DNA of 64,000 nt, from NCBI RefSeq assembly GCF_963678635.1, contig NC_087064.1:32809028-32873027 (forward strand). Direction: 5' to 3'. The notes beneath the pieces were generated by a model. The model saw only the letters and a list, made by a program, of their open reading frames with translations. It had not been told where the DNA came from and searched no databases. The position numbers and the translations under genes were made by a program. The first letter of the stretch is position 1. Each line of letters starts with the position of its first letter. Below, one piece after another: positions 21,349 to 42,148 of this stretch. This DNA comes from Symsagittifera roscoffensis. Its lineage: Eukaryota.

Positions 21349-21350
21349 TC

Positions 21351-21373
21351 TGGTGCGACCATAAGTCTCGAAC
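21351..21373 (+). promoter_or_regulatory. Candidate primer-binding site.
   Basis: TGGTGCGACCATAAGTCTCGAAC begins 2 nt after the LTR end. TGG plus the complement of a tRNA acceptor/T-arm is the usual PBS form. The same motif is conserved next to the LTR of the degenerate copy. Confidence 0.55.
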
Positions 21374-22148: not shown

Positions 22149-22664
22149 AAACAGAACAACTTTGTTCTCCCCCACCCACTTAATTAGTGTCTAACGACCT
22201 CAAACGTCGATTCACTACCCAACCCTTTCTAAAGACCCAAGACTAATAGAAATTTTTAAACAAAACTAATCATTCAAATTAGGATAAACAGTGAAGAACT
22301 TCGGTTATTCATCCTTCACTTGATCCCCCCTCTTACCAGACCCAGGATAAATCTTAGACTTAGTAAGTTTAAAATAGTATCTAACGAACTACTCGCGTTC
22401 TAATTATACCTGAACCTTGTGGATCGATTTACTATTCTCCAACCCTTGAACACAATCACTACCCCTAAGTAAGATTAAGTAAGTTAACACCTTAGCTTAT
22501 ACTAGTCACGAGAAAGTAAAAATCATTCTTCGGAATCGATATACTTTTCTCTCCAACCCTAAACAAATAGACCCAGGTTAAGCTAACCAAAAAATCGTAA
22601 GAACTAACAGTTTAGGAAAATAGAAATCATTTAACAACCTTTTGCACCCGTCATCCTAAACCTT

Positions 22665-23132
22665 ATGTCATTTAAAAACCTAGGGAATAAACAAACAATC
22701 GTTTTACACAATTGTGAAATAGATAACAAAAAATACGACCTTGTAATCACACCTCATACACAAACAGTTGGATACATTCGAACAAAACGACAAACACTAA
22801 AGAGAAAAATAATCACTAAACAAAGACAAATAACACGAAAAAGATTTTCAAAAAATCGAAACGCATTTTCAGAATCAGAAACCAACAGTTTAGACGAACT
22901 CTACAAACTAAAAGAATCAATAGATAAAAATTACCCACAACACGATCAATTATATTTTTCTGACTCAGAAACAACTTCAAATTCATCACAAAGAGGAAAA
23001 AGAAGAATAAAAAAGCAGTATAAACACAAACCAGTACATCTATACAACTGGAATCAACCAATTCGACACATTAATAATTACATATTAACAGTCATCGAAC
23101 GAAAAAATGAGTTCAACGCACACCCCAGGTGA
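22665..23132 (+). CDS. Leader ORF (155 aa, very basic K/R-rich) that overlaps the gag-pol start by 26 nt in another frame. Coding status is uncertain.
   Basis: ORF-track entry. The stop lies downstream of the polyprotein ATG. A-rich sequence biases toward lysine codons, so this may be spurious. Confidence 0.25.
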   Translation: MSFKNLGNKQTIVLHNCEIDNKKYDLVITPHTQTVGYIRTKRQTLKRKIITKQRQITRKRFSKNRNAFSESETNSLDELYKLKESIDKNYPQHDQLYFSDSETTSNSSQRGKRRIKKQYKHKPVHLYNWNQPIRHINNYILTVIERKNEFNAHPR

Positions 23133-26100
23133 CGAAACTCCAGATGATGATGAAATCTTTCCTTTTATAGTAGATGCAGATACTGATAGAGGACAACACA
23201 TATTTTGTCAAAATTTACTCGTAAATTTATTTGAACCCGGAATCAGTCCATGTAAAACAGAGTTCCCCGATGTAAAAATCAAAAGACAAATCATAGATCA
23301 CTATCTAAAAGATATATGCAACATAACACAACAATATGGAATCTACTCTATAGAATTCACTTCCCCAAACCATAATAATAGAACATACACTATTCAAACA
23401 GACGACCTTGATTTAGAATTTTCAAAAGTTTTTTCAGAATATATAAAAAGCATACAATACCATAACTCACAAAGAGCAAACTCCATTTTCACCAATGAAG
23501 TTTTCGCACTAATATATAGTTATATTTCGATATTAGAAAATGAACTCCCATTAACAAATGTCTCACCGACAGAAACATCTAAACATTTAAGAGTACGACA
23601 TGAAATCACACTACTCTCTAGTTATTTAAACATCATTAAAGAAAATTTCACGAAAGACGACGTTTCACAACATACCAAACACGATTTACAAAAAATTTTA
23701 GCATGGTTCATAATAGATTATTTTACACACAATATTGATTTAATTGCACAAGCAAGAAAAAATTTTAGACCCCAAAACTCGAACGATGATACAGCTATCA
23801 CAGAACAATCAGATTATGTTTGGGACCCCGAATGGTCTCATCCCGTATTTATAAACTTTCCACAATCAATCTCAAGTCAAGCAATAGGTACAATATCTTA
23901 CATAAGAGATTATGTAAGAGTAATACCATTAACAATTGATGCAACACCATTAAACTATAATACATTTTTACCCGATACACAAAATAATAGTTTAAACTCT
24001 ACAGTCATACACAATGAAAACCTCAATGGAACTAGGAATCTTACTCAACAAGATATACAGACACCATCACACTTCATAAATGAAGAAATTGTACACACAA
24101 CAACTACACAACAAAGTATTTCACCAATACGCCCAAATTTAACAACACCAAGAAATACAAATCCTTCACAAACACAGGTAACCTTACAATCAACCGTTAA
24201 ACCTTCGGTTGCCCCTAAATATTCACATATGGATTACCAAACATACAAACCCATGACAATACCATCAAAAACACGCAAAACATTCACTAGAAACAACTTT
24301 GCAGACCATAATTATAATTATACACATCCATCAAAAACAAATTATAAACCACAAAGAAATTTTAATCAATATACAAAACCTCGAAACTGGGATAACCCAA
24401 CGGCCCAATATAATTCCACAAATTTTCAACCAAATCCTCCACAGGATCGCAGTGAAAATTACCCATTTTTTCAACAAAATAAAAATAAAAAACAAACATC
24501 TTATCAAATGGATTATTTATCCTCAGATGAAGATTTCTTACAACCAGATATATTTGCACCAAATACTCAAGAATATCGTAGACAAGGAATACAGAAAACA
24601 CGTACAAACCATAGAAATTTTTCTCCACAATCAATAGATGCACAATATCAACAACCAATTCAACAACCAAATCCAATTAATATACAATCTTTTCAACCAA
24701 TTCAACAACAAAATCCAATGACTACACACTCGTATCAACCATCACAAATGCAAAATGAAATACCACTCCCGTATTATCTTCAACAACATGAAATAACAAG
24801 AAACCAACTTTCAAATTTTTCTCAAATGCCAAATGCAGCTGAATCATTACAAATGACAATGAATCCATACCTTATGGGTGGATCATCAATAACATCAAAT
24901 AAACCCTTAATGGTTTTCACAGGAACAGACCCTGAATACTCTGTAGAAGATTACTTAAATGCAGTAACAGCAAATTTAATTTTAAATATTGGACCTGAAC
25001 CAATTAACACGCCACTACATCAAAACTGGATACATCGACGCACAGCGTTGATACAAACAACCTTAGATGGCGCAGCCCAAAAATGGTTTTCAGTACTACC
25101 TCAAGAAATAAAATCAAACTGGAAAAGATTTACACAAGAATTTTCAAAAATGTTTGACTCCGAAAGAAACAAACAACAACAAAGAGTTTTATGTAATGAA
25201 ATTCGCAGATTACCAAACGAAACCATCAAGCAAATAGCAGTAAGAATCGAAACACTAGTTCGAAAAGCATATTCACTAAATACACATGACTATAAAAACA
25301 CTAAGATGACAGAAATCTTAATGATGACCTTAACACCACAATTAAGGAAAATAGCAATAAAAAAGAGAGCATCACATCCTTCTTCAATTCGAGAACCCGA
25401 TTTAGATTTTAGAAAACTAGTAGACAAACTAGAACAAGCAGAAATCACAATGAAATTAGAAGAAACGGAAAATCTGAAATTACAATACGTTAACAAAATT
25501 GAAACGACTCCCACTAATATTAATAATATACAAGAATCAGAAACAGATCTCGTTGAAAAAATCACTGAAATACTCAATATTTACGAAAAGAACCCGAACT
25601 TTAAAGGCAAACCATCTTTCAAAAAATGGTGTAATTATTGCCGACGATACGGACATAGTATTTCCGAATGTAGACAAAAACAACAAGATAGTCAAAATAA
25701 ACCTCAAAAATACAAAGAACCAAATAAATCATTTTATCAATACATGAAAAAAGATCAAAACCTACCAAACAAAAATGTATACAGCAACAACAGTTCAGGA
25801 AAACCACTCCCAAACAATACAAGCTATACAAGAAATCAATCTCCATATAACTCAAGTTATAGAGGAAGATCACCAGAACGAAGAAACACGTATAATTCAT
25901 CACAAAATCACTACAATAGACCGAATAGTCGAAATAACTACTCCAGATCAAATTCAAATACACAACGATTTGTTTCTAGATCTAATTCTCAATCAAGAAA
26001 TAACTATTATCCAAACAACCAATCACGAAATTCATCATACAATAGGAATAGAAACTACTCCTATAATCGAAATAGAAGTTATTCAAACAACCGAAACCAG

Positions 26101-29100
26101 AATTACCCGAACAATCGATCAAGGAATAACTCATATAATAGATCGAACTATAACAGACCAAACAATAATTACCAAAACAGATCACGAAATAATTCACAAA
26201 ATCGACACTCAAGTTATAATAATCGTTATAGAAATTATTCCCAATCACCACACCGGAATAATAATAACTATAATAATTCTAATAATCGCCACAGAAGTAG
26301 TACACCTAAACATCAAAGACAAATCAATCAAGTACAATCTAATCCAGAAACAACATCAGACCCTCCAGGTATTGATGACACAGTAACTGATACGTTACAA
26401 CTCAATCAAATAAACTGTACATCATCAGATTCAGAAAGTGATACTGAAAACACTCTTTCTATCAATATGATAAAAGTCGAAAATGACTATGAATCTGTCA
26501 TATATGAACAACCCTTTCCATCACACATATATGAAAATCAATCAGAATTTCTTCAAAATTATTACACTACACCCATAAATTCCACACCAACAACGCAAGA
26601 AACAAATGAGATTAACACTACAAATCAAACCAATAAAAACACCAAAACAAAATGCTTGAATACAAACCACATTTATCAAAATATACAAAAAGAACAACCC
26701 AAAGAAAAAATTTGGACAATACCATTTCTCTTAGAAAGCCCAAGAAATAAAGAATTTCAACCACCAGACCTTGAAATAGATTTTTTAATTGATTCAGGAG
26801 CAGAATCAAACATAATAAACATTCCCACATGGAATGAAATAAAAATCTTACACCCAAAGCTAACACCTCTTGAAACCTCCAGCAAACTAGCGACAGCACA
26901 AGGATCAACATTGATAAACTACGGAAAAATCCAATTATTTCTCCTCCCTACCAGAACAATGGAACAAAGTAAAATTTTAAATAAGCCATTTAAACAAATA
27001 TTCCATATCACCGATATTAAATATAATATCATTGGAATACCATTTATTTCAAAGTATATACCAACAATTAACATACTAAATAGTAAAATATTAATCAAAG
27101 ATAAATATACAAAAACAAAAGAAACATCCTTAACATTTTTTCAAAGATTGAATAAACAACCACCATTCTTTTCAAAATTTTATCCGATATTTAACCAACA
27201 AAGAAAACACCTGAAACCACTATCAGGAAACATCTATAATTTTTCAATCAAACAAGTTCACCAATATGATAAAGCACAAAACAAACAAAAATTTTATATG
27301 TCAGATTTTGAATTCAAACCGATTCATAAATTTTTCAAAATCACAATCTCTTCAATAAAATATTTGAAAAATTCGAATTCAGATATCATCTCCTTACATG
27401 TCTATAACAACACACCTTACCAAGTAACATTACCATTAGGAGTTTTAGGATATTGTGAAACCAACGCAACAATATCACCAATACACGAAAAAGCCTATCG
27501 CGTAAATAATATACTCCAATTACTAGATATTTGCCAATCTACAATTCTTAATGAAGAATTATCTATAAATAATATAATAAGTAACGAAAACAGAAATACG
27601 GATTATTTCACAAAAACTCCATATTTCAAACCTACATTCAACATCAGTAACTACACAGAGGACCAACAGAAATTTTTAACAATGTTTAATTTCCAACATT
27701 CACAAATAACACAAGACGAATTTGAAAAGTTAGCCAAACAGCTAATTCAATATTCATCAGTCTATGCAACATCAAAATTCGATGTTGGCAAAATCAGTTC
27801 ATCACTACATCTCCCATTAAAACCAGACGCAGTTTTCAAAAAACAAAGAGCAAGTAAAGTACCAATTCACTTACATGATAAAGTAAACAGATTACTCGAT
27901 ATTTTAGAGCAATACAACATTATATCACCGGTTAATAAAGAAGAACAACCAAAAGGCAACACATTCATCAACCCCGTTATCATTCTAGCTAAAGGAGAAT
28001 CGTTAAAAATCGTTCTCGATGCTAGATACCTCAATTCACTCATAGATGAATCAAAATGTAATTGGCTCATTGAACCAATACAAGTTATTTTAACAAAAAT
28101 AAACGGCAAATACTTCACAACCGCCGACATGAATAGTGCATACAATCAAATGCCACTAGATGAACAATCACGACGTTTAACACAATTTGTTATCGGAAAC
28201 CAACAATATGAATTCAACCGCATATTCTATGGAATATCCATAGGACCAGCAGCATTTTCAGCCTTTATGAGCAAAATTTTTAGACCACTAATACTCAAGA
28301 AAAACGCAATCACCTATTTAGACGATGTTTTTATGCAATCACAAACAAAAGACGAAATGTTCAAAGTTTTAGAAACATATCACCAAATACTTCAGAACGA
28401 AAATCTGAAGGCCGCCCCCGATAAATCACACTTCTTTTTGACTAGAGTTAAATTCTTAGGACATAATATAGAAAGAAAAACAATCACTCCACTGAAATCA
28501 CGCATTGACGCTATTCAAAAACTTCAACCACCAACAAATAAAAAGAAAATCCAAGAGTTCCTTGGAATGTTAAACTTTTTAAGTAAATATGTTTATAAAA
28601 TGCAATTATACCTACGACCATTTTATAACATCCTTAGACAACAAAACAACTTTGAATGGAATACAGAACATCAAACACGATTCGAAGAAATAAAGAAACT
28701 TTTAACTGAACAAATTTCAAACACAATTCCAGACCCTGATCAACCATTTTATGCAATGTGCGATGCTTCGAACTTTGGCATCGGCGCAGCATTATTACAA
28801 TCACATAATGGTACAAATAAAATGAACCTCATATCAGCAAATTCTCGATTATTCACTCAAGCAGAGCTACGACTCTCAACTCTAATGAGAGAATGTACAG
28901 CCATAATATATACACTTACAGAATATGAATTTCTGATACTTGGATCAAAACATCCCACAGTTTTGTTCACAGACCACAAACCAATCATCTTTCTTTTTAC
29001 ACAGAAATCTAACCCAAACCACCGAGTTTACAGATTTCAACTAATTCTAATGAAATTTCCAAACTTACATATAGTTTGGACTGCAGGAAAAAATCTTGCA

Positions 29101-31329
29101 TTACCAGACACCTTAAGTCGAAATACACCACCTGAATTACTTACACGAAAAACAACAGTTGAAATACCCAAAAATATAAAATTCTACCTTGCAGAAAACG
29201 AAACATCACCTCGATTAGAATGCAAATATGCAGTAAAAACTGATATTGAACAATCACAAATAAATAATTTACAACATTTCCCACTTTATTTAGATTGTCA
29301 AAATAATCATTATGAAGTTGACCTACTTGGAACATCAACTTTTAAACCAATTCCATATTCTCAATGGATAAAAAATAACACCCAACAAAAACGAACAAAA
29401 CAACACCTACCTAAAAAAGACCATTTTCCACTAATTGAAAAAGAAGATTTAACTGATAAAATAAATTTATCAGGACCACAAACAAATGATTCAAAATACA
29501 CAATAAATCAAGTTTTTGACCTTCACGACCCACTTGATACAATACCATTATCTAAATTAGAAATCGAAAACATTTTTCTCCCCCCAACAGAAACAATTAC
29601 AATTTCAACACTGAAACAATATCAAAACCTTGACCCAGTAATTCGACAACTAAAATCATGGCACAAATATAAAACTAAACCTATCAAAGCAGATTCAACC
29701 ATTCTAGGAAACAAAACACTCCTCCGATACTTTCGCAAGTTTAACAATACAACAATTAACGAAAATACAGACCTTTTAGAGTACAACCTTAATGAATCTA
29801 CAGTTCCCTGTCTCCCTATAAGTATGATTCTTATAGCTTTTAATATTTCACATACACAAAACATTAAAGGACACTCTGGATCAGAGAAAACATATTCAAA
29901 TTTTATACAAAATTTTTACTTCCCAAATGCACCAATTTGGATAAAAGTACTATGCAATGATTGTATAGTATGTCAATTAAATAAACCTTACCCAAATCAA
30001 AAACAAATAGCACAAAAACAAGATTTTAAAGGACAAAGTTTATACTTTAATCATCGTATCTCATTTGATACTAAAGGACCAATTTCACCCTCATCAGAAG
30101 GAAACTCCTACATTATGGTAATTGTTGACGCATTTACACATTATGTAGCACTTAACCCAGTACCACATTGTAACGCTTATTACGCATACACAACACTTTA
30201 TGAACACTGGATAGCAAAATTTGGACTACCAGAAATTTTAGTCACAGACAATGGTACAGAATTCATAAATAATGAAATAATAACACTATGTCATTTATAC
30301 AACATTAAACACAAACCACGTACATCTCATGCACCTTGGACAAACGGCTTAGTCGAAGGTATGAACCGTTCACTACAAGAATATCTTAGATGTATCATCA
30401 ACGGAAATGATACCAAATATACCGAATGGTCAGCAGATGTAAAATTATTTCCATTAGCATATAATTCACAAATCACGACAACTTTAGGAATGTCACCATA
30501 CGAAATGGTTTTCAACCAAAAGCCACGCAAACCAATAATGTTTACAGCAAATTCCCATAAAAACGCACAAGGTTATTGTCAACCAAATAAAGACTCAATT
30601 TGTTATAACCTACCATTACATACGCACGATGAAGATCATTTTCATCACCCACAAATCCTTAAATTAGCCTCCGGTACACACACCGAATGGATTTTAAATA
30701 GAGATAAGAAACACAATGAAATTTACCAAAAAATAACGAAAAAGTTATTACAAAGACAAAACATAAATGAACAAATCAATTCACGTTTTACACCAGCTTC
30801 CGATTTAAAAATTGGAACATTTGTTTTAATACCTAATTTTAATACTCAAAAAGGAATTTCTAAAAAATTACAACCCCTCCGAAAAGGACCCTATCAAATA
30901 ATTGCAAAACCCACAGATGTCACATATAAAATTATCGACTCAAACAAAAAAGAAATCGTTCAGCATCGAAACAACCTATTACCTTATTACCCAAAAGAAT
31001 ACGCACTCCGCGAATTAACCCAATTATATTCTTTCACAGGATTAAAAATTATTCAAAACGAACCACATCTGAAAAACACAGAACAAAATGATAACCCCAC
31101 CGAAAATCAAAACACAAAACCAATCGCTACCAAAAACAATACACAAAACCATAAAGAATCTCCAAAACAAAGAAAAAATAGAAAAATGACAGAACAAATA
31201 ATACCCCAAGAAGAAATAGACAAATCAGAACATAGAAAGACAACAAGACTCCGAAATCAACCACGTAAAAACTACAAAATGTTCATCCCCCAATCTAAAA
31301 TATTAAAGAAAGTAGAATTTAAAAATTAA
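23107..31329 (+). CDS. gag-pol polyprotein (2740 aa): N-terminal extension, gag-like, CCHC zinc knuckle, Arg/Ser/Asn-rich region, aspartic protease, RT, RNase H, integrase.
   Basis: Uninterrupted 8.2-kb ORF. Motifs CNYCRRYGHSISEC, FLIDSGAESN, TTADMNSAYNQMPLDE, YGISIGPAAFS, ITYLDDVFM, RVYRFQLILMKFPNLHIVWTAGKNLALPDTLSRN, H-x6-H-x29-C-x2-C, VIVDAF...VTDNGTEF...TNGLVEGMN, LRKGPYQI. Confidence 0.93.
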   Translation: MSSTHTPGDETPDDDEIFPFIVDADTDRGQHIFCQNLLVNLFEPGISPCKTEFPDVKIKRQIIDHYLKDICNITQQYGIYSIEFTSPNHNNRTYTIQTDDLDLEFSKVFSEYIKSIQYHNSQRANSIFTNEVFALIYSYISILENELPLTNVSPTETSKHLRVRHEITLLSSYLNIIKENFTKDDVSQHTKHDLQKILAWFIIDYFTHNIDLIAQARKNFRPQNSNDDTAITEQSDYVWDPEWSHPVFINFPQSISSQAIGTISYIRDYVRVIPLTIDATPLNYNTFLPDTQNNSLNSTVIHNENLNGTRNLTQQDIQTPSHFINEEIVHTTTTQQSISPIRPNLTTPRNTNPSQTQVTLQSTVKPSVAPKYSHMDYQTYKPMTIPSKTRKTFTRNNFADHNYNYTHPSKTNYKPQRNFNQYTKPRNWDNPTAQYNSTNFQPNPPQDRSENYPFFQQNKNKKQTSYQMDYLSSDEDFLQPDIFAPNTQEYRRQGIQKTRTNHRNFSPQSIDAQYQQPIQQPNPINIQSFQPIQQQNPMTTHSYQPSQMQNEIPLPYYLQQHEITRNQLSNFSQMPNAAESLQMTMNPYLMGGSSITSNKPLMVFTGTDPEYSVEDYLNAVTANLILNIGPEPINTPLHQNWIHRRTALIQTTLDGAAQKWFSVLPQEIKSNWKRFTQEFSKMFDSERNKQQQRVLCNEIRRLPNETIKQIAVRIETLVRKAYSLNTHDYKNTKMTEILMMTLTPQLRKIAIKKRASHPSSIREPDLDFRKLVDKLEQAEITMKLEETENLKLQYVNKIETTPTNINNIQESETDLVEKITEILNIYEKNPNFKGKPSFKKWCNYCRRYGHSISECRQKQQDSQNKPQKYKEPNKSFYQYMKKDQNLPNKNVYSNNSSGKPLPNNTSYTRNQSPYNSSYRGRSPERRNTYNSSQNHYNRPNSRNNYSRSNSNTQRFVSRSNSQSRNNYYPNNQSRNSSYNRNRNYSYNRNRSYSNNRNQNYPNNRSRNNSYNRSNYNRPNNNYQNRSRNNSQNRHSSYNNRYRNYSQSPHRNNNNYNNSNNRHRSSTPKHQRQINQVQSNPETTSDPPGIDDTVTDTLQLNQINCTSSDSESDTENTLSINMIKVENDYESVIYEQPFPSHIYENQSEFLQNYYTTPINSTPTTQETNEINTTNQTNKNTKTKCLNTNHIYQNIQKEQPKEKIWTIPFLLESPRNKEFQPPDLEIDFLIDSGAESNIINIPTWNEIKILHPKLTPLETSSKLATAQGSTLINYGKIQLFLLPTRTMEQSKILNKPFKQIFHITDIKYNIIGIPFISKYIPTINILNSKILIKDKYTKTKETSLTFFQRLNKQPPFFSKFYPIFNQQRKHLKPLSGNIYNFSIKQVHQYDKAQNKQKFYMSDFEFKPIHKFFKITISSIKYLKNSNSDIISLHVYNNTPYQVTLPLGVLGYCETNATISPIHEKAYRVNNILQLLDICQSTILNEELSINNIISNENRNTDYFTKTPYFKPTFNISNYTEDQQKFLTMFNFQHSQITQDEFEKLAKQLIQYSSVYATSKFDVGKISSSLHLPLKPDAVFKKQRASKVPIHLHDKVNRLLDILEQYNIISPVNKEEQPKGNTFINPVIILAKGESLKIVLDARYLNSLIDESKCNWLIEPIQVILTKINGKYFTTADMNSAYNQMPLDEQSRRLTQFVIGNQQYEFNRIFYGISIGPAAFSAFMSKIFRPLILKKNAITYLDDVFMQSQTKDEMFKVLETYHQILQNENLKAAPDKSHFFLTRVKFLGHNIERKTITPLKSRIDAIQKLQPPTNKKKIQEFLGMLNFLSKYVYKMQLYLRPFYNILRQQNNFEWNTEHQTRFEEIKKLLTEQISNTIPDPDQPFYAMCDASNFGIGAALLQSHNGTNKMNLISANSRLFTQAELRLSTLMRECTAIIYTLTEYEFLILGSKHPTVLFTDHKPIIFLFTQKSNPNHRVYRFQLILMKFPNLHIVWTAGKNLALPDTLSRNTPPELLTRKTTVEIPKNIKFYLAENETSPRLECKYAVKTDIEQSQINNLQHFPLYLDCQNNHYEVDLLGTSTFKPIPYSQWIKNNTQQKRTKQHLPKKDHFPLIEKEDLTDKINLSGPQTNDSKYTINQVFDLHDPLDTIPLSKLEIENIFLPPTETITISTLKQYQNLDPVIRQLKSWHKYKTKPIKADSTILGNKTLLRYFRKFNNTTINENTDLLEYNLNESTVPCLPISMILIAFNISHTQNIKGHSGSEKTYSNFIQNFYFPNAPIWIKVLCNDCIVCQLNKPYPNQKQIAQKQDFKGQSLYFNHRISFDTKGPISPSSEGNSYIMVIVDAFTHYVALNPVPHCNAYYAYTTLYEHWIAKFGLPEILVTDNGTEFINNEIITLCHLYNIKHKPRTSHAPWTNGLVEGMNRSLQEYLRCIINGNDTKYTEWSADVKLFPLAYNSQITTTLGMSPYEMVFNQKPRKPIMFTANSHKNAQGYCQPNKDSICYNLPLHTHDEDHFHHPQILKLASGTHTEWILNRDKKHNEIYQKITKKLLQRQNINEQINSRFTPASDLKIGTFVLIPNFNTQKGISKKLQPLRKGPYQIIAKPTDVTYKIIDSNKKEIVQHRNNLLPYYPKEYALRELTQLYSFTGLKIIQNEPHLKNTEQNDNPTENQNTKPIATKNNTQNHKESPKQRKNRKMTEQIIPQEEIDKSEHRKTTRLRNQPRKNYKMFIPQSKILKKVEFKN
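25630..25671 (+). other. Nucleocapsid CCHC zinc knuckle (C-x2-C-x4-H-x4-C).
   Basis: tgt aat tat tgc cga cga tac gga cat agt att tcc gaa tgt, in frame. Confidence 0.85.
25800..26330 (+). other. Arg/Ser/Asn/Tyr-rich low-complexity domain (RS-like) between the NC and protease.
   Basis: About 175 residues of repeated SRNNYS / NRNRSYS / NRSRNNSYNR motifs. Confidence 0.8.
26740..27080 (+). other. Aspartic protease domain.
   Basis: IDFLIDSGAESNIINIPTW, with DSG at 26791-26799. The matching segment exists in the degenerate copy. Confidence 0.8.
27810..29130 (+). other. Reverse transcriptase plus RNase H.
   Basis: RT motifs A through E, with YLDD at 28324-28335. RNase H CDASNFGIGAALLQ then TDHKPI, and the linker ending NLALPDTLSRN at 29124. 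Confidence 0.85.
29800..30950 (+). other. Integrase: HHCC zinc finger, DDE core and GPY/F-like C-terminus.
   Basis: HTQNIKGH...CNDCIVCQ, D(VIVDAF)...D(VTDNGTEF)...E(LVEGMN), and LRKGPYQIIAKPTDVTYKI. Confidence 0.85.
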
Positions 31330-31929
31330 TTTTAAAATTTTATACTTCACAATCTTGAAACCTCCGTAACATTTTTCATTTCCATTTTTCAAAATAACAT
31401 GCTCACAAGTACGCAATAATTCTAGTTCAAAATAGACCAATAGGATTCATCCAATCCGCCACTTTCTCTAACTCAAACTAAGATCAATTAGACGAATAAT
31501 CTAGAACTCCAGGCACATCTCTAACTATAACTTTACAACCTCCAGGTCAAAAATAAGCAAACCACTCCAACTTGACAGCTAAAATAAATATCACCATAAT
31601 ACCGTACCCCTCCCTTATCTAATAACCCAAAGATCAACAATATTTCCCCAACTCAGACCACGAATACCCCCAAAACAAATTTGATAACTTAGCCTAAAGT
31701 CACAAAATGAAGATTTTAATTAGCCTAAAGTATAAAAATCTCACCATACCCCGGATCATTTGACAAACAAAAATAAAGAAAAAGACGACCTCCCAGTCAC
31801 CATGAAAATTGCCCCCAACAATTTTTTACGAAACTCAACCCACTTGTCAAAAAACTAATAAATAATTCGACCACACTAGAAAATCGCCTCAAACAGCAAA
31901 AAATATTCGACAAAGAGATCATTTCTTAA

Positions 31930-32345
31930 ATGCTTTTCTCTCAAACAGTCGCTCAAATATTTATCAATTTTAAACATTTTTTTTCAATACTTCAAGTCTT
32001 TATAATCTTTCTTTTTGATATCATCGAATCTTTTCTAATAATCATAATAATTTTTTGTAACATTTTTTTAATTTTCTACACAATAATTGAACTATTCCTC
32101 CAACTTTCCAAAACCCTTGAATATATCCACAGGTACGATTTTAACAACTTGTCTAAATGATACGAACAATTTTCAGTAGAACTGATATTTTTTTATTGTT
32201 TGTAATTTTCATAACATTTCTATCATCCCTCATTTTGACAATATGTAAATGTATAAAGAAAGCAATCATTACATTTGCCCTAGCAACAATTTTTCTAATT
32301 CTTTTTTTAGAAGAATATTATAATAAACATAAACCCTCTCACTAA
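31930..32345 (+). CDS. Two short, very hydrophobic ORFs (76 and 62 aa) joined by an ATGA stop-start overlap at 32157. Coding status is uncertain.
   Basis: ORFs 31930-32160 and 32157-32345. T-rich sequence could create them by chance. Confidence 0.2.
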
Positions 32346-32350
32346 AGTAA

Positions 32351-33488
32351 CAATTTAAAAATCCATCAAAAATTGCTACCCAACAGTCACAGAATCAGTC
32401 TTCACCGACATCATCCCAAGATAATCCAACACCACCTTCAACTACTCAAAACCCTCAAACATCTACACGAATTTCTTTTCAAGACAATCCATACACCTTT
32501 GAAGAAAGGCACGCTCGTTTATCTGAACCACTAGAACCAGTTCAACGACAAGCATCCCTAAGTGAACCAACATATAATCTTTACCCAACACTACCACAAG
32601 AACTAAGTAGAATACGAAACCTTAGTCAAAACCAAAACACAGCAGAAATAAATAGACAAATTATACATCCTCGACGAAATAGAAATTTTCAAACTCCCCG
32701 AGTTCATTTTGATATACCTCAATCCCCAACACAAACCACTCCAGAAAACACCACTGGTATCACACCAGAAACTCCTACACTTTTTTCACAACGAAGCACT
32801 TCAAGTCTACCTTCAGACTACTTAGGTTCAACACCAACATCTGAACAGATACGTGAAAATCCCTTTAACCCCCCAAACCTAACATCACGACTGCCATATT
32901 GGACTACAAATTCATTCACACAAGGTGAACCAAATTTAGTCAATGACCCCATAGATATTTCTACGGATACAACAACATCCTCATCACTACCAGAAACATT
33001 ATCACTACCATCAACACCATCAATAAGTCAATTTTCACCACTACCCTTTAACTTAAATTTTCCAAATAATCTCGACGCCAGATATCGAGAACAATCATCA
33101 ATAAATATTCCTTTAAGATTAGATTGGAATACATTCACAGCACCTCCACCACTATTTGGACAACATCAAGAAAGTAACCGCCTTCATAACTGGGCACTTA
33201 ATAGATTACAATATCGCCAAGATATTCACAACGATATCCGTGATCACAATATTCAAATACTCCAACAAAACAGTTTACAATTAAAATTTGAAATCACAGT
33301 TAAGTTAAATAATATTACCCAACATCCCTACCCATTAAATCCACCTAACATAACAGCTCAATCACTACCACCACCGTTTATAACTACTGAAGTAATATAC
33401 AAATACGACAGATACACTAAAAACACAATTGGTTACATTACATTTTATAATCCATACTCAGGATTATCATACACATGTATATTCTAAA
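32351..33488 (+). CDS. ORFx: open reading frame of 378 codons with no in-frame ATG. N-terminus is S/T/P/Q-rich.
   Basis: Stop at 32348-32350, then no stop until taa at 33486-33488, in AT-rich DNA where stops are expected about every 15-20 codons. The C-terminal part is conserved at protein level in the degenerate copy (ORF 4402-4680). It overlaps the env-like ATG (33475) by 14 nt. Confidence 0.6.
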
Positions 33489-36093
33489 ATTATTAATTTT
33501 TCTCCAAACCCTTTTTCTAATAACCTCAAATCAAAATATAAACCCTTCCCCTCGTACAGGACCACAAGATTTATTAGTAACACATTACGATTGCGAAGAA
33601 AATGAACAAAAAACACTACATAAATATGCAATCAATCAGGTATCACAATGTGAAACAGAACCACAAGCTATAGAAACCACAGATATAATAGCAACACTCT
33701 ATTCAAAAGCCCGAGCAACAACAGTTACAGGTTATAAATTCACAGCAACATTTTCCGAAAAGAAAGTACATTGTTCACAAGTCTCGAACGGAAACAAAAA
33801 CCGACTTGACCATGAATCATTCTACCAAAGTAATATAGAACGTCTTTTACATCTCAATCCCGACGATTGTAAAAATGAATTACTTAGACTAAACATCACA
33901 AAAAATAAAAACTCCCAAAGAAAATTAGTTAATTTTCAAGTTTTTTCAGACTCTGTACATCAATCACAACTTGAAAGACACCAAGGACATATAAGACTAG
34001 ACGAAAAATACCCGTATAACGGCGCACACGGACGATTAACCTATGACCTACATGATAAACACTGGATACCACACATTGGTATAAATAACCCATCAAACTG
34101 CAAAGCAGACACAAAAAATAAAGGATACCAAGAAATAATGTTTTTCGATTGGAAAATACAACTCGAAAAAATACAACTCACACGAGATTTATCTGATAAT
34201 ACAATGATCTATCAAGGAATCCGACTACCTTGTAAAAATGATCAAGGATATTGCGACCCTACAACGAGAACACAAGCAACAATTGTTTGGTTCCCCGAAG
34301 ACACATGTACAACATTTCAAGTAGCAAAAATACACGCTCGTATGATAAAATTTCACGAAAAATATTTCATACAATCAATTCCATATGAACAAGTCCATCC
34401 ATCACGCAAACTAAGTTCCGATTTTCGAAACATAGACAATATAGAAAATAAATTGACACGTTTTCAAATATATCAAGAAACAGAACTTGCATGTAAATAC
34501 AGGAATCCACTTCACAGAACACAATACTCTGAAATATTAGTTGAATATGAAAAAGGATTCGACATGACCACTGGTAAAGTAAAAATCGACCCATACGCCA
34601 CAGGTCATCCTCTAAACGAAGGAACATCCTATATACCAGTTAATTTTGAAAAAAGCAACGGACAACCTGGTGGACATCTAAAACCTTATGACACCAGAAG
34701 CACACGCTTACAAGAATTATCACTAATGAATACTACATATTTTGGTAATATCCACTATGATATTCATTTGGATATGAAACTAGACTATACAATTAGCCGC
34801 ATTTTTCAAGAAATGTCACTCTCTGAATTAGAAACACTACATCAACTATGCGAATTAGAACGAACACAAATACTACAATCACTTGCACTAGCAGTATTAA
34901 AAATACCCTACGCAGGATACTTATTATCAGGAAATAGATCAAATTTTTTAGACTACGAAGGAAACATCTTATGGTTTTATACTTGTACTAAAAAAGTATC
35001 ACCACTATACGTTTTTGAAGATAAACGATGTTATAAAAGAATTCCTATCTTTTATAAGAATAAAGTACATTTCGTGGATACACTTTCACGAAGAACATAT
35101 TTCTGGGATACCGCAGTCCCATGTGGATCAGAAAATAGCCACAATGTAGTACAACTAAACCCTGATGAAAACAAATATTATCTTCTCACTCCATATCCCA
35201 CATTAATGCAATCACTCAAAAAATTTTCACCAGAAAGCATTCGCGCTATTGCTCGAAACCCAAATATAGACTTACAATCAATAGGAATCTATTCAAAATC
35301 AGATATTCAACATCACATTAGAACACAACAATTCCAAGAATTATTAACACAAATGGACACTATACAAAGACAATCAATAGACCAAAACTTACGCAAACTT
35401 GCAGAAACCGCAGGATTTGCCGATATCTACACGCAAGACTATAGCGGATATTTTAAAGACATAAAAGATTATATATATCTAAACGGCGAAAAATACCGTC
35501 CCCAAGATATATCACCAATTAACATTTTTAGCTTTGTTACACTCAAAAATGAGATCCTAGATTTTCTAGGATGGCCCTACTACATCTTAGAAAAATTGAC
35601 TATTTTATACGCAATGTTTAACTTTATTGGATTTCTTTTCTCACTCTTAAAAGGAATCTACAATACATGTGCTATACACACACAAGTAAACAGACAAGCA
35701 AGCGTAGCACGCATACTCTTTGCAGGATTTTTTGGAATTTTTTCCACATCTATAAACAAAATTCTTTTAGACGCACAAATAAAAGAATATAACACAAAAA
35801 TAACAACACGACAAAATACATACGACGAAGAACATAACAATGTCGACACACAGCCAACGGCACCACAATTACCACCCCTACCAAATAACCATCCACTATC
35901 CCTAGCCCCGCGAAATTTTAGAAATTTAGCAATCACACATAATCCAAATTTTCGACTCACCACATCACAAAGTCCCGTCCAACATATAATGACACATCCA
36001 TCACAAGATGATAATACTTATGAACAAATTATTGAACAGCCCCATACCACCGCTTTTCAATCTCAAAATAATAATTTTTTTAGCCCACGATGA
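33475..36093 (+). CDS. env-like glycoprotein candidate (872 aa): N-terminal signal peptide, Cys-rich ectodomain, C-terminal hydrophobic anchor.
   Basis: MYILKLLIFLQTLFLITSNQN is a signal-like start. Many Cys and N-x-S/T sites. Hydrophobic segments LTILYAMFNFIGFLFSLLKGIY and ARILFAGFFGIFSTSI near the C-terminus. Homologous fragments are in the degenerate copy. Confidence 0.75.
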   Translation: MYILKLLIFLQTLFLITSNQNINPSPRTGPQDLLVTHYDCEENEQKTLHKYAINQVSQCETEPQAIETTDIIATLYSKARATTVTGYKFTATFSEKKVHCSQVSNGNKNRLDHESFYQSNIERLLHLNPDDCKNELLRLNITKNKNSQRKLVNFQVFSDSVHQSQLERHQGHIRLDEKYPYNGAHGRLTYDLHDKHWIPHIGINNPSNCKADTKNKGYQEIMFFDWKIQLEKIQLTRDLSDNTMIYQGIRLPCKNDQGYCDPTTRTQATIVWFPEDTCTTFQVAKIHARMIKFHEKYFIQSIPYEQVHPSRKLSSDFRNIDNIENKLTRFQIYQETELACKYRNPLHRTQYSEILVEYEKGFDMTTGKVKIDPYATGHPLNEGTSYIPVNFEKSNGQPGGHLKPYDTRSTRLQELSLMNTTYFGNIHYDIHLDMKLDYTISRIFQEMSLSELETLHQLCELERTQILQSLALAVLKIPYAGYLLSGNRSNFLDYEGNILWFYTCTKKVSPLYVFEDKRCYKRIPIFYKNKVHFVDTLSRRTYFWDTAVPCGSENSHNVVQLNPDENKYYLLTPYPTLMQSLKKFSPESIRAIARNPNIDLQSIGIYSKSDIQHHIRTQQFQELLTQMDTIQRQSIDQNLRKLAETAGFADIYTQDYSGYFKDIKDYIYLNGEKYRPQDISPINIFSFVTLKNEILDFLGWPYYILEKLTILYAMFNFIGFLFSLLKGIYNTCAIHTQVNRQASVARILFAGFFGIFSTSINKILLDAQIKEYNTKITTRQNTYDEEHNNVDTQPTAPQLPPLPNNHPLSLAPRNFRNLAITHNPNFRLTTSQSPVQHIMTHPSQDDNTYEQIIEQPHTTAFQSQNNNFFSPR

Positions 36094-37883
36094 GCCGCCA
36101 ACTTGGATCACTCCATCGATCAAATTCCCATCCAACCAACCTTACCTCTTCAATCCCAATAATACCACTTTTTGCTTTTCCGCCACCCGATTTTCCATCT
36201 AGCAATGTAACATCAGGCATGAATTCCGACACTAACTCACAAATTTCAGTTTTATACTCCATTTCACAGCTAAATAACCCGAATATTGAAACCCCCGACG
36301 AATTTGCCGACTCAGAACCATCTCCATCCAATAATTTTCATAACCCTTCTCATTTTTCTCAACCTCCTTTTCAACCCATATTATCAAATAACCCTGACCC
36401 AATCACTCCTACACCCTCTTATGCTTCCCAAGTTACCCCAACCTACTCCTCATACCATTCTGACCAATCATCTCCAGACACCCCCCGAATCTCCCCAGAG
36501 CTAGACAATTTTATTACCCTCCAACAACAACCCTACCACCTTAACACCCCGACCATAAACCAAATCTCCTCCACTACAAATTCATCCAATCCCCCTACAC
36601 CCTCTTCAAATTATACCGAATCATTAGCACCATCATCCACATCAACTGAATCCTCACTCAACACTAATAGAGCTTATCGCACTTTTAAAAGAAAGTTCCC
36701 CAACCATCCTTTCCCAGCAAAACCAGGAACAGCCCGAGAATACATCAACCACCCCCAACATACTAACACTAGAGAATTTTTAGCCATCACTTTACCCTCA
36801 TTTCCACAATACACCTTAAACACCCCTCATGACGCTAACGAAACACGCAACTTTGTAGACGAATACGTTTTAATGCCCACTCTCTCTTGGACCTCATACT
36901 ATCATTTCACTAACCCTCTTTGCTTACCTTTAACTAACACATCCATTGATATAGACCGAAACAAAGACATGCTATATCGACTAACTACACCACTCACCGC
37001 TAGACAATTTACTTACGTTGGATATAAAAAATCACTAAAAATACACACTGCACCTAGAGCTAACGAATACACACTAGAATACTATGATCACAACATCATC
37101 AGAGCTAACCAAGATCAATTCTTAGACGACGATCGCTTCGCTAACCCACAAATCACCGAGAAATTTTTCATCAATACACCATATGTATTTACACTAAACA
37201 TCTTCGACCGAAAGTTTGATCACATTATTTCAGAAGCACTAACAAGCACACAAGCGTACGAAAGTTTTAAAGAACGCTTCCAAATCTTTTCACTAACCTT
37301 TCATTTCCTTGCACCACACGAAAGAGATTTACACTGCTCACACGATATTATGTTGCGAACTAAACAAACACATACATACAGTTACTATCGTTTCATCCAA
37401 AATCACTTTGACCTCCACACACCCTCTAGACAACCACACCATCGCTTTCAATTCATCAATTCAAAATACACTTCACCGTATTTCCTAAATTTCACATATT
37501 GTATTAAAAATACTAACCTTCATGGTATTCTTCGTAATTATGACCCCATAACCCAAATGTATATTTTCTGCCCCATCACCAAGACCTTCAACGCAGAAGA
37601 ATCCCGACCCTTCCTTATCCCGCACGAGTTTGTACAGCCTATAGAAATCCCCATTTTAGAATTCATCCACAACACTAAATTTAACCACAAGTTATATAAC
37701 TTAATCCAAAACACACCTTATGAGTTTGCAGTAGGCACTGAAGAACTAACCACTATTAAGGCACTTCAATTGCTTTGGCCACTACTTCAAACTAAAAATA
37801 TCATCCGCATCTTAGCTAAACTACTAACAACTTCAGAACTAATTCACAATATCTTCCCCCACGGTTTTTTCCCCGACGACTAA
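36090..37883 (+). CDS. ORF3 (597 aa), unknown function. Pro/Ser/Thr-rich N-terminal half and a structured C-terminal half.
   Basis: Its ATG overlaps the env-like stop (cgATGAgc at 36090-36093). It is conserved in the degenerate copy (822-1495, minus strand). No recognisable motif. Confidence 0.7.
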   Translation: MSRQLGSLHRSNSHPTNLTSSIPIIPLFAFPPPDFPSSNVTSGMNSDTNSQISVLYSISQLNNPNIETPDEFADSEPSPSNNFHNPSHFSQPPFQPILSNNPDPITPTPSYASQVTPTYSSYHSDQSSPDTPRISPELDNFITLQQQPYHLNTPTINQISSTTNSSNPPTPSSNYTESLAPSSTSTESSLNTNRAYRTFKRKFPNHPFPAKPGTAREYINHPQHTNTREFLAITLPSFPQYTLNTPHDANETRNFVDEYVLMPTLSWTSYYHFTNPLCLPLTNTSIDIDRNKDMLYRLTTPLTARQFTYVGYKKSLKIHTAPRANEYTLEYYDHNIIRANQDQFLDDDRFANPQITEKFFINTPYVFTLNIFDRKFDHIISEALTSTQAYESFKERFQIFSLTFHFLAPHERDLHCSHDIMLRTKQTHTYSYYRFIQNHFDLHTPSRQPHHRFQFINSKYTSPYFLNFTYCIKNTNLHGILRNYDPITQMYIFCPITKTFNAEESRPFLIPHEFVQPIEIPILEFIHNTKFNHKLYNLIQNTPYEFAVGTEELTTIKALQLLWPLLQTKNIIRILAKLLTTSELIHNIFPHGFFPDD

Positions 37884-37889
37884 CAGGTA

Positions 37890-37965
37890 AGTATGAACTA
37901 AATGAATATTACTAACTAATTAAAATATTGAAAAACTCACCATTCCTTATTCATGTTTTCTTTAG
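37890..37965 (+). other. Intron-like signal immediately after the ORF3 stop: consensus donor, TACTAAC branch point, pyrimidine tract and AG.
   Basis: gactaaCAG|GTAAGTATg ... atTACTAACtaat ... ttcatgttttctttAG|att. Confidence 0.3.
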
Positions 37966-39498
37966 ATTTTTAGCCTTCATCTTCAATCATCTGAAAAATT
38001 CACAAAAGAAAAATAAAAAATAGCAAACTTCTTCAAAACTATTTAAAACCCTATTTAACTTTTGCACCAACAATTAAATAAATATAATACCAATGCAGTA
38101 AATTAATTTATAAAATTTTCCCCTAAAAGCAGTAAATCTACATATGATGAAAATTTGTATCTTAAAATTCCCCCATTACTAGCAGTAAATTTCCAAATTC
38201 TATGCAGTAAATTAATAAAATGCAATTGCAGTACTAACCTTTTGATATTTTCATTCATTCGCACAGAAATTCTATCCACACTCGCACAGCTCGCCCACGA
38301 AGAATTGTTTAAAATAATGAATTTCAGTTTCAAGTTTTCACACTCAACAACTCTAACAAATAATAACAAGTTTCAAACTTTCCTTTAACCCGGTTGGAAA
38401 GGAATCATATACTAAACAAAACTAACCAACGCAGCTTACTAAATACCACAAATCATAAAATAACAGCATGACTAAGAAAAGGAAACCAACGGTACCCAAA
38501 CCGGATTAACCCAGTTTAAAACTGGATAATTTATTCTTTTGAAGACTATTACAAAGTCTTAGAAAGAAATAATAAAACACAAAAAAGTCAAAAGACAAAC
38601 CCATACCACAAACAATTTGCTTTTTGGAAAAAGTACATAACCAACAAAACATAAGTAAAACCACAACAAACCCAACATAAAATGTTGTCACATAACAGGA
38701 CCCCTCATAAAAACCGCATGAAATCATACTCCCACACCTGGCCTAACCCACCAGGAAAGGACGTCCTGAGCATGCTCTATAGCCGGCCTAACCCACCGTG
38801 CTACATCCACGCTTTGTGACCACACCTTTATTTTTAATAAGAGCTACTCAAGGGTGAGTAACTCTTCAAAATAACCGAACTAAAACAAAAAGCTTTTGTG
38901 AAAACAACTAACTAAAATCATAATTAAAAAATATTAAATTAATAAAAGTTTTATAAAATGTAAAATCACATGATGCAATATATAGATCAGAATACAACAC
39001 CAAGGACGAACATCAAAAGACAAGACGACCTCACTACACTCGAGAGAGAATGACCAACTATAATCGATATGCCGCTCACAATCACAACTCAAAGGATTTA
39101 GAGTACGACTTGACCTCGCAGAAAAGGACTTCATTGAACTAGACCAATGACCACCTCGATGTTCAAGTATACGTACAGATCCGAGTAACCAGGCATCCCC
39201 TCCACGCACAATCTCCACGCCATTCCCGAGCTAGATCAAACACAAAAGAAGTTCTCTCCGAAGAACAGAAAAACCTGACATAGCCAACCATTCTGAAACC
39301 AGAATTGATGCTGTTGCAGAGACTCAGTCGTTGTCACAAGAAGAACACAACGTCTTGTGTCCTCAATTCCAGATCCCTGGAACTTCCTTAACAAAAAGGA
39401 AACAAAAGAAAAATGATGTTCGCCAAATACCAACGTCCATCATCCATCCTTGAACTACAAAAGAACTGTTCTAAAAAACTCTGTAAAACCCGGATGGG

Positions 39499-39906
39499 TG
39501 GAACCTGATCTAAACTATATTTTATGATTGGATAAATTAAATGTTTTACCAATGTAAAGTATTTAATATTAACCAATCATGATCCATCTAACTAACAACC
39601 CACTTATTTGTAAGTGCTGAAGTTACTTGTAATTTCAGCACCAGAGAGATTTGAATTTAACTTAGAAATTAGTTGGACTCTCCCGAGCACTTCAGCAGCC
39701 GCAATAAACCAGTATACCCTAGATCTATTGAGCCTAGCAGAGACTAGTTAAACAACCTGAGACTAGATAGTATAAGAGTAAGATTAGGATCGGTATTAGA
39801 CTAAGAAGTTGCACGAATCTATCCGGCCGAAAATAAGATAGCGTGACGAGCAGACGGTGTACCCTATCCGAAATTACTCTATGAGTTACACTCCAGTCCA
39901 AACTCA
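39499..39906 (+). repeat. 3' LTR (408 bp).
   Basis: Identical to 20941-21348. Preceded by a weak purine tract cccGGATGGG. Confidence 0.9.
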
Positions 39907-40335
39907 CAGGGGTGGATCTAGGATTTTCTCGAGGGGGGGGGGCGATTTTTCAAAAATTTTCGAAATTTTTGTCGACCTTTTTTTTTTAGGTCGACCCGAA
40001 TTGATTTTCCGAGCTCTCCCAAAGCACTAAAAAGACCCTGTTTTAGTCAAATTTTCTGCGCCGCAGGCATTTTTTTGGAAAACAGGCCAAAAAAAAGGCG
40101 TTTTTAGTCACTTTTTAAAAAATTTTGACCAAAAAAAATGCGTTTTTTTGGCGCTCGCTCCCCCCTTAGAGTAAGTATATATTGGCGCCTAAGGCGCCTT
40201 TAGAAAATTTTTAGGGTCCGTCACCAAATATGGATATCTTAAAATAGTACAAAGGGGGGACCCTTTGGGTCGGCAGGGGGCCGAATCCCTGAGGGAGGGG
40301 GAGGGGAGCGTCCGCCCCCCCTAAATCCGCCCCTG
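39907..40335 (-). mobile_element. hAT-like MITE copy B (429 bp). It is the target of the retroelement insertion.
   Basis: Begins CAGGGGTGGATCTAGGATTTTCTCGAG and ends CCCTAAATCCGCCCCTG, the reverse complement of copy A's organisation. The 5' flank at 20937-20940 (CAGG) equals the first 4 bases of this MITE. Confidence 0.8.
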
Positions 40336-41745: not shown

Positions 41746-42148
41746 CAGGGATGGATCTAGAATTTGTCCACATTTTTGTCCACATTTGTCGCAAATTTTG
41801 TCCACATTTTTTTAGGTCGACCAAATTGATTTTCCGAGCTCTACCAAAGCACTAAAAAGACCCTTTTTGGCCAACTTTTCTGGGTCGCTATCAAAATTTT
41901 GAAAAACCAGACCAAAGAGGCGTTTTTAGGCAATTTGGAAAAATTTAACTGAAAAACATGCGTTTTTTGGCGCGCGCTCCCCCCTCAAATTTAGTATATA
42001 TTGACGCCAGAGGCGCCTTTGAAAAATTTCAGGGCCTGTCGAAAATGGATATCTCTAAATAGTACAAAAGGGGACCTTTGGGTCGGCGGGGGGTCGAATC
42101 TCTGAGGGACGAATTGCCCCCGCCCCTTCCACCCTAAATCCGCCCCTG
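41746..42148 (-). mobile_element. hAT-like MITE copy C (403 bp) with a perfect 8-bp TSD TTGTATAT.
   Basis: CAGGGATGGATCTAGAATT...CCCTAAATCCGCCCCTG. The flanking 8-mers 41738-41745 and 42149-42156 are identical. Confidence 0.8.

Follow-up and report, generated by a model that had tools for sequence, protein, structure and literature searches.

We analysed a 64,000-nucleotide stretch of the genome of Symsagittifera roscoffensis (hereafter the window; contig NC_087064.1, positions 32,809,028 to 32,873,027 of the forward strand). Within it lies a Ty3/gypsy-type long terminal repeat (LTR) retroelement of 18,966 bp (20941-39906, + strand). Downstream of gag-pol and a spacer of 600 nt, this element carries five packed open reading frames (ORFs): ORFa, ORFb, ORFx, an env-like gene and ORF3 (Table 1). 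Two of the junctions between them, at 32157 (ORFa/ORFb) and 36090 (env/ORF3, cgATGAgc), are exact ATGA overlaps of a stop codon with the next start codon, as a first-pass annotation of the sequence had reported. That annotation gave the overlap between the ORFx stop codon and the env ATG as 14 nt; it measures 13 nt. Its view that packing this compact is unusual for an LTR element was upheld. Here we consider how these ORFs might be translated.

The element has what defines an LTR element: TG...CA LTRs, a 4-bp target-site duplication (CAGG) at both ends, and a putative primer-binding site. The latter is of the tRNA type: it starts with TGG 2 nt past the 5' LTR (TGGTGCGACC), and its complementary sequence terminates in the T-arm-like GTTCGAG. 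gag-pol matched the Pfam families PF03732, PF00078, PF17917/17919, PF17921 and PF00665, with RVT_1 at 1665-1788, RT_RNaseH at 1876-1984, Integrase_H2C2 at 2244-2294 and rve at 2315-2406. This order, reverse transcriptase (RT), RNase H and then integrase with H2C2, is that of Ty3/gypsy elements. The coding strand is rich in A and C (A = 41%) and poor in G.

The product of the env-like gene matched PF24664 (Monjiviricetes_fusion, chuvirus/rhabdovirus type; E=3.9e-11, 42.1 bits against a cutoff of 27). By this match, the gene downstream of pol is a predicted viral fusion glycoprotein of the Monjiviricetes/gB type. ORFx and ORF3 had no Pfam family and no PDB sequence match. The structure model of ORFx was confident only in a C-terminal helix plus a 5-strand sheet and had no fold match in BFVD or PDB; the single-sequence model of ORF3 had a pLDDT (predicted local distance difference test score) of 30. 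We conclude that the element is a variant of kinds already known, a Ty3/gypsy element that carries env and whose genes are arranged in the manner of a pararetrovirus.

Table 1. Positions of the element's features in the window
Feature	Position	Strand	Description
5' LTR	20941-21348	+	408 bp, TG...CA; 100% identical to 39499-39906
Putative primer-binding site	21351-21373	+	TGGTGCGACCATAAGTCTCGAAC
AUG-free part of the leader	21853-22664	+	812-815 nt, flanked by ATGs (21850 and 22665)
ORF0	22665-23132	+	155 aa, basic; own AUG in weak context (C at -3)
gag-pol	23107-31329	+	one ORF, 2740 aa; gag, zinc knuckle, RT, RNase H, integrase
ORFa	31930-32160	+	76 aa, very hydrophobic; weak AUG (T at -3, C at +4)
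Candidate 44-nt intron	32133-32176	+	CAG|GTACGA...TTTTCAG|T; would fuse ORFa and ORFb in frame; weak, not conserved
ATGA overlap 1	32157-32160	+	ORFb ATG 32157-32159 / ORFa TGA, within TAAATGA, which closes two frames
ORFb	32157-32345	+	62 aa, two hydrophobic segments; most constrained small ORF
ORFb/ORFx linker	32343-32365	+	stops in 3 frames (32343, 32348, 32356); indel-prone
ORFx	32351-33487	+	378 codons, no AUG; open 32351-33484, TAA 33485-33487
ORFx/env overlap	33475-33487	+	13 nt; kept in all copies
env-like glycoprotein	33475-36093	+	872 aa; putative signal peptide and C-terminal membrane segment, ~230-aa tail
T7 run + AG	36075-36083	+	TAG closes the ORF3 frame 2 codons before the ATG; acceptor-like, 6 nt before the ATG
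ATGA overlap 2	36090-36093	+	ORF3 ATG 36090-36092 / env TGA 36091-36093; cgATGAgc
ORF3	36090-37883	+	597 aa; N-terminal part P/S/T-rich, C-terminal part conserved; AUG with A at -3
3' LTR	39499-39906	+	408 bp, identical to 5' LTR

Selection on the ORFs and conservation of their junctions

We found that purifying selection is clear for ORFb, ORFx, env and ORF3 and weaker for ORFa. The window copy was aligned with the copies at loci L001 (95% identity), L002 (90%), L003 (81%) and L004 (73%) and with a degenerate copy in the same window (copy B), and the ratio of nonsynonymous to synonymous substitution rates (dN/dS) was calculated. The ratio for ORFb was 0.04-0.06 against the three closest copies and 0.13-0.26 against the most diverged. 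Ratios were 0.09-0.21 for ORFx, 0.06-0.19 for env and 0.05-0.16 for ORF3. ORFa evolves fast (~0.3), yet it is intact and has the same length in L001 and L002. Controls (spacer, 3' untranslated region (UTR), off-frame) gave 0.5-1.1, compared with 0.04-0.36 in the ORFs. Another frame, ORFz (31777-31926), lies in the frame of ORFa and is separated from it by one TAA; its dN/dS of 0.4-0.9 was no lower than in the other frames, and it was rejected as coding. The spacer between pol and ORFa is poorly conserved apart from one block, CCACTTGTCAAAAAACTAATAAATAAT (31845-31870), which is kept even in copy B and may be a cis element, e.g., an internal promoter or an acceptor region.

Both stop-start junctions were unchanged in 11 further full copies (94.5-99.9% identity). 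In more diverged copies the two behaved differently. At env/ORF3, TTTTTAGCCCACGATGAGCCG was retained in L001, L003 and L004f (95, 81 and 73%), the segment was absent by deletion in L002 and L004r, and the ATGA was mutated in two dead copies, to ATGG in L019 and ATTA in L018. This pattern indicates that the env/ORF3 ATGA is ancestral for lineages down to ~65-75% nucleotide identity. At ORFa/ORFb, the core TAAATG was kept everywhere. ORFa ends at the overlapping TGA (32158-32160) in the window, L001 and L002, and at the TAA that abuts the ATG, after an upstream indel of 1-2 nt, in L003, copy B, L004f and L019. The frame homologous to ORFa in L018 seems to run ~20 nt beyond the ORFb ATG, and this case is ambiguous. 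ORFa therefore stops at the ORFb AUG, whatever its frame, in 7/8 copies examined: the close juxtaposition is conserved and the exact ATGA is not. The comparison with other copies had been proposed in the first-pass annotation, and by it the overlaps are preserved in the family: both were kept in close copies and that of env/ORF3 in diverged ones. At ORFa/ORFb, five copies have a TAA directly before the ATG in place of the exact ATGA.

Such junctions are rare. On both strands of the window (128 kb), no ATGA-linked pairs other than these two were present among ORFs of 60 codons or more, and Markov-simulated sequences of 18 kb yielded 0.013 ATGA-linked pairs of long ORFs. A distant relative, L007 (pol ~40% amino acid identity), also has an ATGA-linked pair (13359-13882). 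There, the TGA of a 92-codon ORF overlaps the ATG of an 83-codon P/S/T-rich ORF (AAAATGAAC) at the position expected for env/ORF3. No homology of this pair to the tail of env and the N-terminus of ORF3 was demonstrable, as the similarity did not exceed that of shuffled sequences. L005 and L006, distant relatives by env, have neither ORFx nor ORF3 and gave no information on the junctions.

Translation of the ORFs downstream of pol

We found that ORFb and ORFx are separate ORFs. All three frames are closed at 32343-32358, so the two cannot be joined by frameshifting or readthrough. ORFb ends at a TAA shared by the window, L001 and L002. The frame of ORFx relative to ORFb is -1 in the window and L001 and +1 in L002 and L003. 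In L019 the two form one continuous ORF (7025-8311), and in L018 (10001-11221) they are in frame with a TGA between them. Because the frame relation differs between copies, ORFx is independent of the frame of ORFb; frameshifting or readthrough from ORFb into ORFx was rejected on the closed frames and on the varying frame relation among copies of the active lineage. ORFx remained under purifying selection after the TAA arose, and in the active lineage it must therefore start alone, without an AUG. The best candidate for a non-AUG start is the AUU at 32372, in AAAAUUG; the corresponding AAAATTG (32369-32375; A at -3, G at +4) is conserved. A database protein, P0373 (L018 10001-10666), gives the appearance of an ORFb-ORFx fusion: the gene caller took the in-frame TGA as Trp, and by the standard code the protein cannot be translated from the L018 locus.

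Splicing onto ORFx gave no convincing candidate. GT-AG pairs joining ORFa or ORFb to ORFx allowed many in-frame combinations, none of them compelling. The gag AUG spliced from a donor at 23129 would enter ORFx in the wrong phase. A leader ATG|GTTAGT (21850/21853) joined to CAG| acceptors at 32386, 32392 or 32398 would reach the ORFx frame, but the ATG is not conserved in copy B and we regard this route as speculation.

The region that ribosomes would have to cross between ORFb and env is depleted of AUGs. In the 1.3 kb that begin directly past the ORFb ATG and end at the env ATG (32-33 kb, all frames), we counted 3 ATGs, compared with 9.9 expected. The same span had 5 (8.5 expected) in L019 and 6 (11.5 expected) in L018, and the ORFx-like frame of L007 had 4 (9.8 expected), with 0 Met in 373 codons. 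In contrast, env and pol at the same loci were at expectation (37/33.9, 34/30.3, 31/33.0, 43/39.6 and 63/64.0, observed/expected). Within ORFx itself none of the 378 codons is a Met codon (P=0.005, given the 1.4% Met frequency of the element), and there are 2 out-of-frame ATGs, one of them the env start, compared with 7.3 in codon shuffles (P=0.01). The ATG-free gaps across ORFx, 694 and 532 nt, are among the longest on the + strand of the window. The ORFs that begin at the three ATGs of the ORFb-env interval are 1, 24 and 3 codons long. Between 32250 and 33474 there was a single ATG in the window, L001 and L002, at varying positions, and there were 2-3 in dead copies; between the ORFa and ORFb AUGs, no ATG intervened in 6 copies. 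The AUG depletion is significant and family-wide (four lineages).

A similar arrangement lies at the 5' end. The leader before ORF0 is very long, 1.3 kb (region 21353-23132). It begins with a 77-codon ORF (21437-21669) with four in-frame ATGs, followed by three short upstream ORFs and then by an ATG-free stretch for which 4.5 ATGs were expected (P=0.011) and which is the longest on the window's + strand. Within ORF0 no further ATG occurs in any frame ahead of the gag-pol start; a 442-nt ATG-free gap spans this ORF, and the gag-pol AUG has A at -3. The layout of leader and ORF0 resembles that of a pararetrovirus leader. The leader also contains a perfect 60-nt tandem repeat of 2.4 copies (22004-22148). 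Each unit forms a hairpin, GATCATCAAGG-CTTAT-CCTTGGATC (fold z-score -3.1), and the repeat may be a packaging or dimerisation signal.

Leaky scanning calls for upstream ORFs that are free of AUGs and have weak or non-AUG starts. ORFa and ORF0 contain none, and ORFb-ORFx has the three that open ORFs of 24 codons or fewer; env, with 37 internal ATGs, does not fit. Weak or non-AUG starts are found in ORF0, ORFa, ORFb and ORFx. The AUGs of ORF0, ORFa and ORFb have no purine at -3 (in ORFb, a T).

Our tentative choice is scanning-based polycistronic translation, with ORF3 expressed separately or by reinitiation. Most likely, ORFa, ORFb, ORFx and env would be carried on one subgenomic mRNA whose translation depends on scanning. 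40S subunits would either bypass the weak ORFa and ORFb AUGs or, once past those short ORFs, take up scanning again; they would then traverse the AUG-depleted ORFx region and initiate at the env AUG. ORFx would be initiated inefficiently at a non-AUG codon. The ATGA at ORFa/ORFb would then be the tightest placement of the end of one ORF and the start of the next, and not itself a reinitiation signal. For ORFa, ORFb and env this route appears to fit better than termination-reinitiation. We infer the mRNAs, the leaky scanning, the non-AUG initiation and the route to ORF3 from the sequence.

Several points weigh against scanning-based translation. The env AUG, at which the scanning subunits would have to initiate, is itself in a weak context (C at -3, T at +4). 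ORFx is disordered, and its S/P/T/Q/N-rich composition accounts in part for the scarcity of AUGs. Its non-AUG start is purely something we infer. The ORFa/ORFb juxtaposition survives changes of frame, which termination-reinitiation also predicts. All occurrences of GTAAGT are in non-coding sequence, two of them in the leader, which fits retrovirus-like, separately spliced mRNAs. Finally, homology matches to env and ORF3 came solely from ENA genome and metagenome assemblies.

How ORF3 is reached is a separate matter. The 37 ATGs within env exclude leaky scanning to ORF3. Fusion of env and ORF3 by frameshifting was also rejected: a slippery U7 heptamer (36075-36081) lies in the env frame, but the -1 frame stops at TAG 36081-36083. 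We give about an even chance to ORF3 being translated from an mRNA of its own, either spliced or internally initiated; termination-reinitiation after env is possible and less probable.

The strongest alternative to scanning-based translation is retrovirus-like splicing, which we consider possible but doubtful. Each 3' ORF, or at least ORF3, would have its own subgenomic mRNA, made by joining a leader donor to an acceptor just upstream of its AUG, and the overlaps would reflect compaction only. Drosophila gypsy and, as far as is known, all retroviruses make env through splicing. A subgenomic mRNA is needed in any case, as the 8.2-kb gag-pol has 130 internal ATGs and could not be scanned. GTAAGT occurs three times in the element (1.1 expected), each time in non-coding sequence: at 22363 and 22479 in the leader, and just past the ORF3 stop codon. 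Upstream of the ORF3 ATG there is a conserved T7-AG, at a distance of 6 nt, and ACTCAG|G is found 13 nt upstream of the env ATG. However, TTTT[TC]AG occurs 13 times in the element, so that the site before ORF3 is not special, and by a generic 3' splice-site score the env and ORF3 sites fall outside the top 40 of 796 AG dinucleotides. No copy derived from spliced RNA was found among 19 loci, and the junctions of deletion derivatives are not of the splice type. Separate mRNAs would also leave the selection against AUGs across ORFb-ORFx unexplained. As a separate observation, the third GTAAGT (37887, CAG|GTAAGT) lies 4 nt past the ORF3 stop codon and is followed by T-rich AG sites (37964-37973) 80-87 nt downstream; this suggests a possible short intron in the 3' UTR.

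Termination-reinitiation, the reading to which the first-pass annotation had pointed, is in our judgement rather unlikely as the general mechanism. Ribosomes that finish ORFa or the 872-codon env would restart at the overlapping AUG, yielding ORFb and ORF3. Consistent with this, both junctions are exact AUGA; L001, L003 and L004f retain the env/ORF3 ATGA with its flanks (TTTTTAGCCCACGATGAGCCG), which is ancestral to L018 and L019; ORFa stops at the ORFb AUG in any frame in all copies examined except the ambiguous L018; and at env/ORF3 leaky scanning and frameshifting are barred by the env ATGs and the TAG, respectively, and the ORF3 AUG carries an A at -3. Both the non-LTR element SART1 and caliciviruses are known to use this mechanism (PMC5902531).

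The signals expected for such a mechanism were not found, however, so that of this claim the overlaps stood, as real, preserved and lying between coding sequences, and a known signal did not. In the termination upstream ribosomal binding site (TURBS), motif 1 is UGGGA, which is complementary to helix 26 of 18S rRNA and lies ~40-90 nt upstream. The first-pass annotation had proposed a search for motifs of this kind, but UGGGA, GGGA and UGGG were all missing from the 120 nt upstream of every junction. These regions are poor in G (7-14 per 120 nt). Their 60-120 nt fold like shuffled sequence (minimum free energy -3.1 to -11.1 kcal/mol, z -1.95 to +1.44), with no significant structure that could present motif 1 (motif 2/2*). 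Thus, of the elements of a TURBS, only the stop/AUG overlap is present. A downstream hairpin of the SART1 type was not found at 36090 either (-3.3 kcal/mol over the 80 nt downstream of the ORF3 AUG); the 80 nt downstream of 32157 gave -11.7 kcal/mol, a value without a shuffle control. Where such elements are missing, ribosomes that have translated a long ORF normally reinitiate with very low efficiency, and translation of ORFb is already explained by weak AUGs with no AUG between them. The missing signals lower the claim of a TURBS- or SART1-type mechanism and may be compatible with an idiosyncratic one.

The full combination of leaky scanning, a non-AUG start for ORFx and non-TURBS reinitiation after the 872-codon env for ORF3 we consider improbable. 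We know of no such combination described for Metaviridae or Retroviridae.

It is more doubtful still that ORFa and ORFb are two exons coding for a single small membrane protein and that a 44-nt intron is spliced out; this intron would contain the ATGA and make it irrelevant. The sequence CAG|GTACGA ... TTAAC ... TTTTCAG|T would fuse the two in frame. L001, L002, L003 and L019 retain both ends, and L004f does so in part; the interior has indels of 1-2 nt, and the 44-nt segment is more conserved than the body of ORFa. However, L018 has neither GT nor AG at the homologous positions and still has TAA-ATG. The seven would-be intronic codons (MIRTIFS) show only synonymous changes in L002 and L003 and keep the pattern M-[IFL]-[RQ]-x-[ILF]-F-[SN] in distant copies. 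Moreover, 44 nt is short for most animal introns.

We regard it as very improbable that the overlaps are functionless accidents of a sequence in which A often follows ATG: the A content would put ATGA at ~4/10 start codons, and gag-pol also starts with ATGA, without an overlap, but the two ATGA-linked pairs of long ORFs in the 128 kb of both strands compare with only 0.013 expected per 18 kb, and both overlaps are flanked by constrained ORFs and retained in diverged copies. The ATGA overlaps are real and could well be a selected feature of the extreme gene packing in the 3' half of the element, although we hold this view with some reserve.

Other copies and the surrounding sequence

The element is active, young and highly amplified. 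Near-identical copies number in the hundreds elsewhere. ORF3 has 594 database relatives, the best 120 of which are full-length (597 aa; two of 599 aa) and at least 98% identical. Ten further loci carry full copies that are 99.5-99.9% identical to that in the window, with unchanged geometry.

The degenerate copy B (~1-17060, minus strand, ~70-77% identity) lies head-to-head with the intact copy and is cut by the start of the window. It contains an internal tandem duplication of 3.6 kb (~7851-11354 and 11464-14973, 98-100% identical). The family also has many internal-deletion derivatives with in-frame chimeric ORFs (P0002, P0005, P0023-P0027, L002 and L018). The chimeras include env-ORF3, pol-env and env with an internal deletion, and in L018 the leader is joined to the gag zinc knuckle. 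Their junctions have no GT/AG and look like template-switch deletions. We rejected the chimeric proteins and the L018 leader-gag deletion as copies of spliced RNA, as the junctions are not of the splice type.

Scans of the 64-kb window with Rfam and for tRNAs gave no matches. A host gene lies on the minus strand at 63336-64000, a C-terminal Sec63-domain exon of an ASCC3-like helicase that is 39-52% identical to fish, hemichordate and mollusc proteins. At L011, another host gene is present as an uninterrupted ULK4-like ORF of 1302 aa (14338-18246). Short dispersed repeats (~100 nt, 66-75% identical; 40161-40257, 55445-55541, 39981-40095, 41806-41920 and 55268-55382) adjoin the 3' side of the element and recur 15 kb away. 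These repeats, and a tandem array with a 146-nt unit (61411-61927), are unrelated to the retroelement.

Comparison with known systems

According to the current view, splicing gives LTR retroelements and retroviruses access to the genes that lie beyond pol, and frameshifting or readthrough gives access to gag-pol. Polycistronic translation by scanning is the hallmark of plant pararetroviruses, and termination-reinitiation belongs to some RNA viruses and non-LTR elements. If our reading is correct, translation strategies of pararetroviruses and RNA viruses would extend to Metaviridae, and a retroelement could gain a captured envelope and accessory genes with no need for further splice sites. The hundreds of intact copies would be a natural and abundant test system, and four accessory proteins with no assigned function (ORFa, ORFb, ORFx and ORF3) accompany the gB/chuvirus-type env.

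The AUGA or UAAUG-type overlap between two long ORFs is like that of caliciviruses, influenza B virus and victorivirus (AUGA). Unlike in caliciviruses and influenza B virus, there is no UGGGA motif 1 and no upstream structure, and the upstream ORF encodes an 872-aa membrane glycoprotein. SART1, with its UAAUG coupling, and ORF2 of human L1 are likewise retroelement cases with a proposed termination-coupled restart (PMC5902531). They belong to a different class of element, and the junction here is between env and an accessory gene, not between ORF1 and ORF2. SART1 also needs a stable hairpin ~34 nt downstream, and none is predicted here.

Ty3/gypsy elements that carry env genes with gB/Chuviridae-like envelopes are widespread in animals (Chary & Hayashi, PMC13524379); other ORF arrangements and expression lay outside that survey. 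The present element shares with these elements and with Drosophila gypsy-type errantiviruses the order LTR-gag-pol-env, a class III-type env and many near-identical copies. It differs from them in its 19-kb length, in the additional constrained ORFa, ORFb, ORFx and ORF3, in ORF0 upstream of gag, and in its ATGA junctions and an ORF with no AUG. The small membrane-protein ORFs with weak AUGs upstream of env are like those of the bicistronic vpu-env and rev-env mRNAs of human and simian immunodeficiency viruses (HIV-1/SIV), in which env is reached through leaky scanning or reinitiation (PMC5902531). Unlike in HIV-1/SIV, env is preceded by three ORFs, one of them with no AUG, over ~1.5 kb.

ORFs I-III of rice tungro bacilliform virus (RTBV) and the badnaviruses are translated from the pregenomic RNA by leaky scanning; an AUU serves as a start (that of ORF I in RTBV), ORFs I-II are free of AUGs, and stop and start codons are fused (PMC5902531). 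Like these viruses, the element is reverse-transcribing and has fused stop/start codons, upstream ORFs purged of AUGs, weak or non-AUG starts, and a long leader with short ORFs and hairpins. It is not a member of the Caulimoviridae, which are episomal, lack LTRs and integrase and encode a movement protein; the present element instead has two LTRs of 408 bp that match exactly, a duplicated target site and the core domain of an integrase. In contrast to RTBV and the badnaviruses, it is an LTR retroelement of an animal, with an integrase and an env gene, and its AUG-depleted block lies 3' of pol and would therefore need a subgenomic mRNA.

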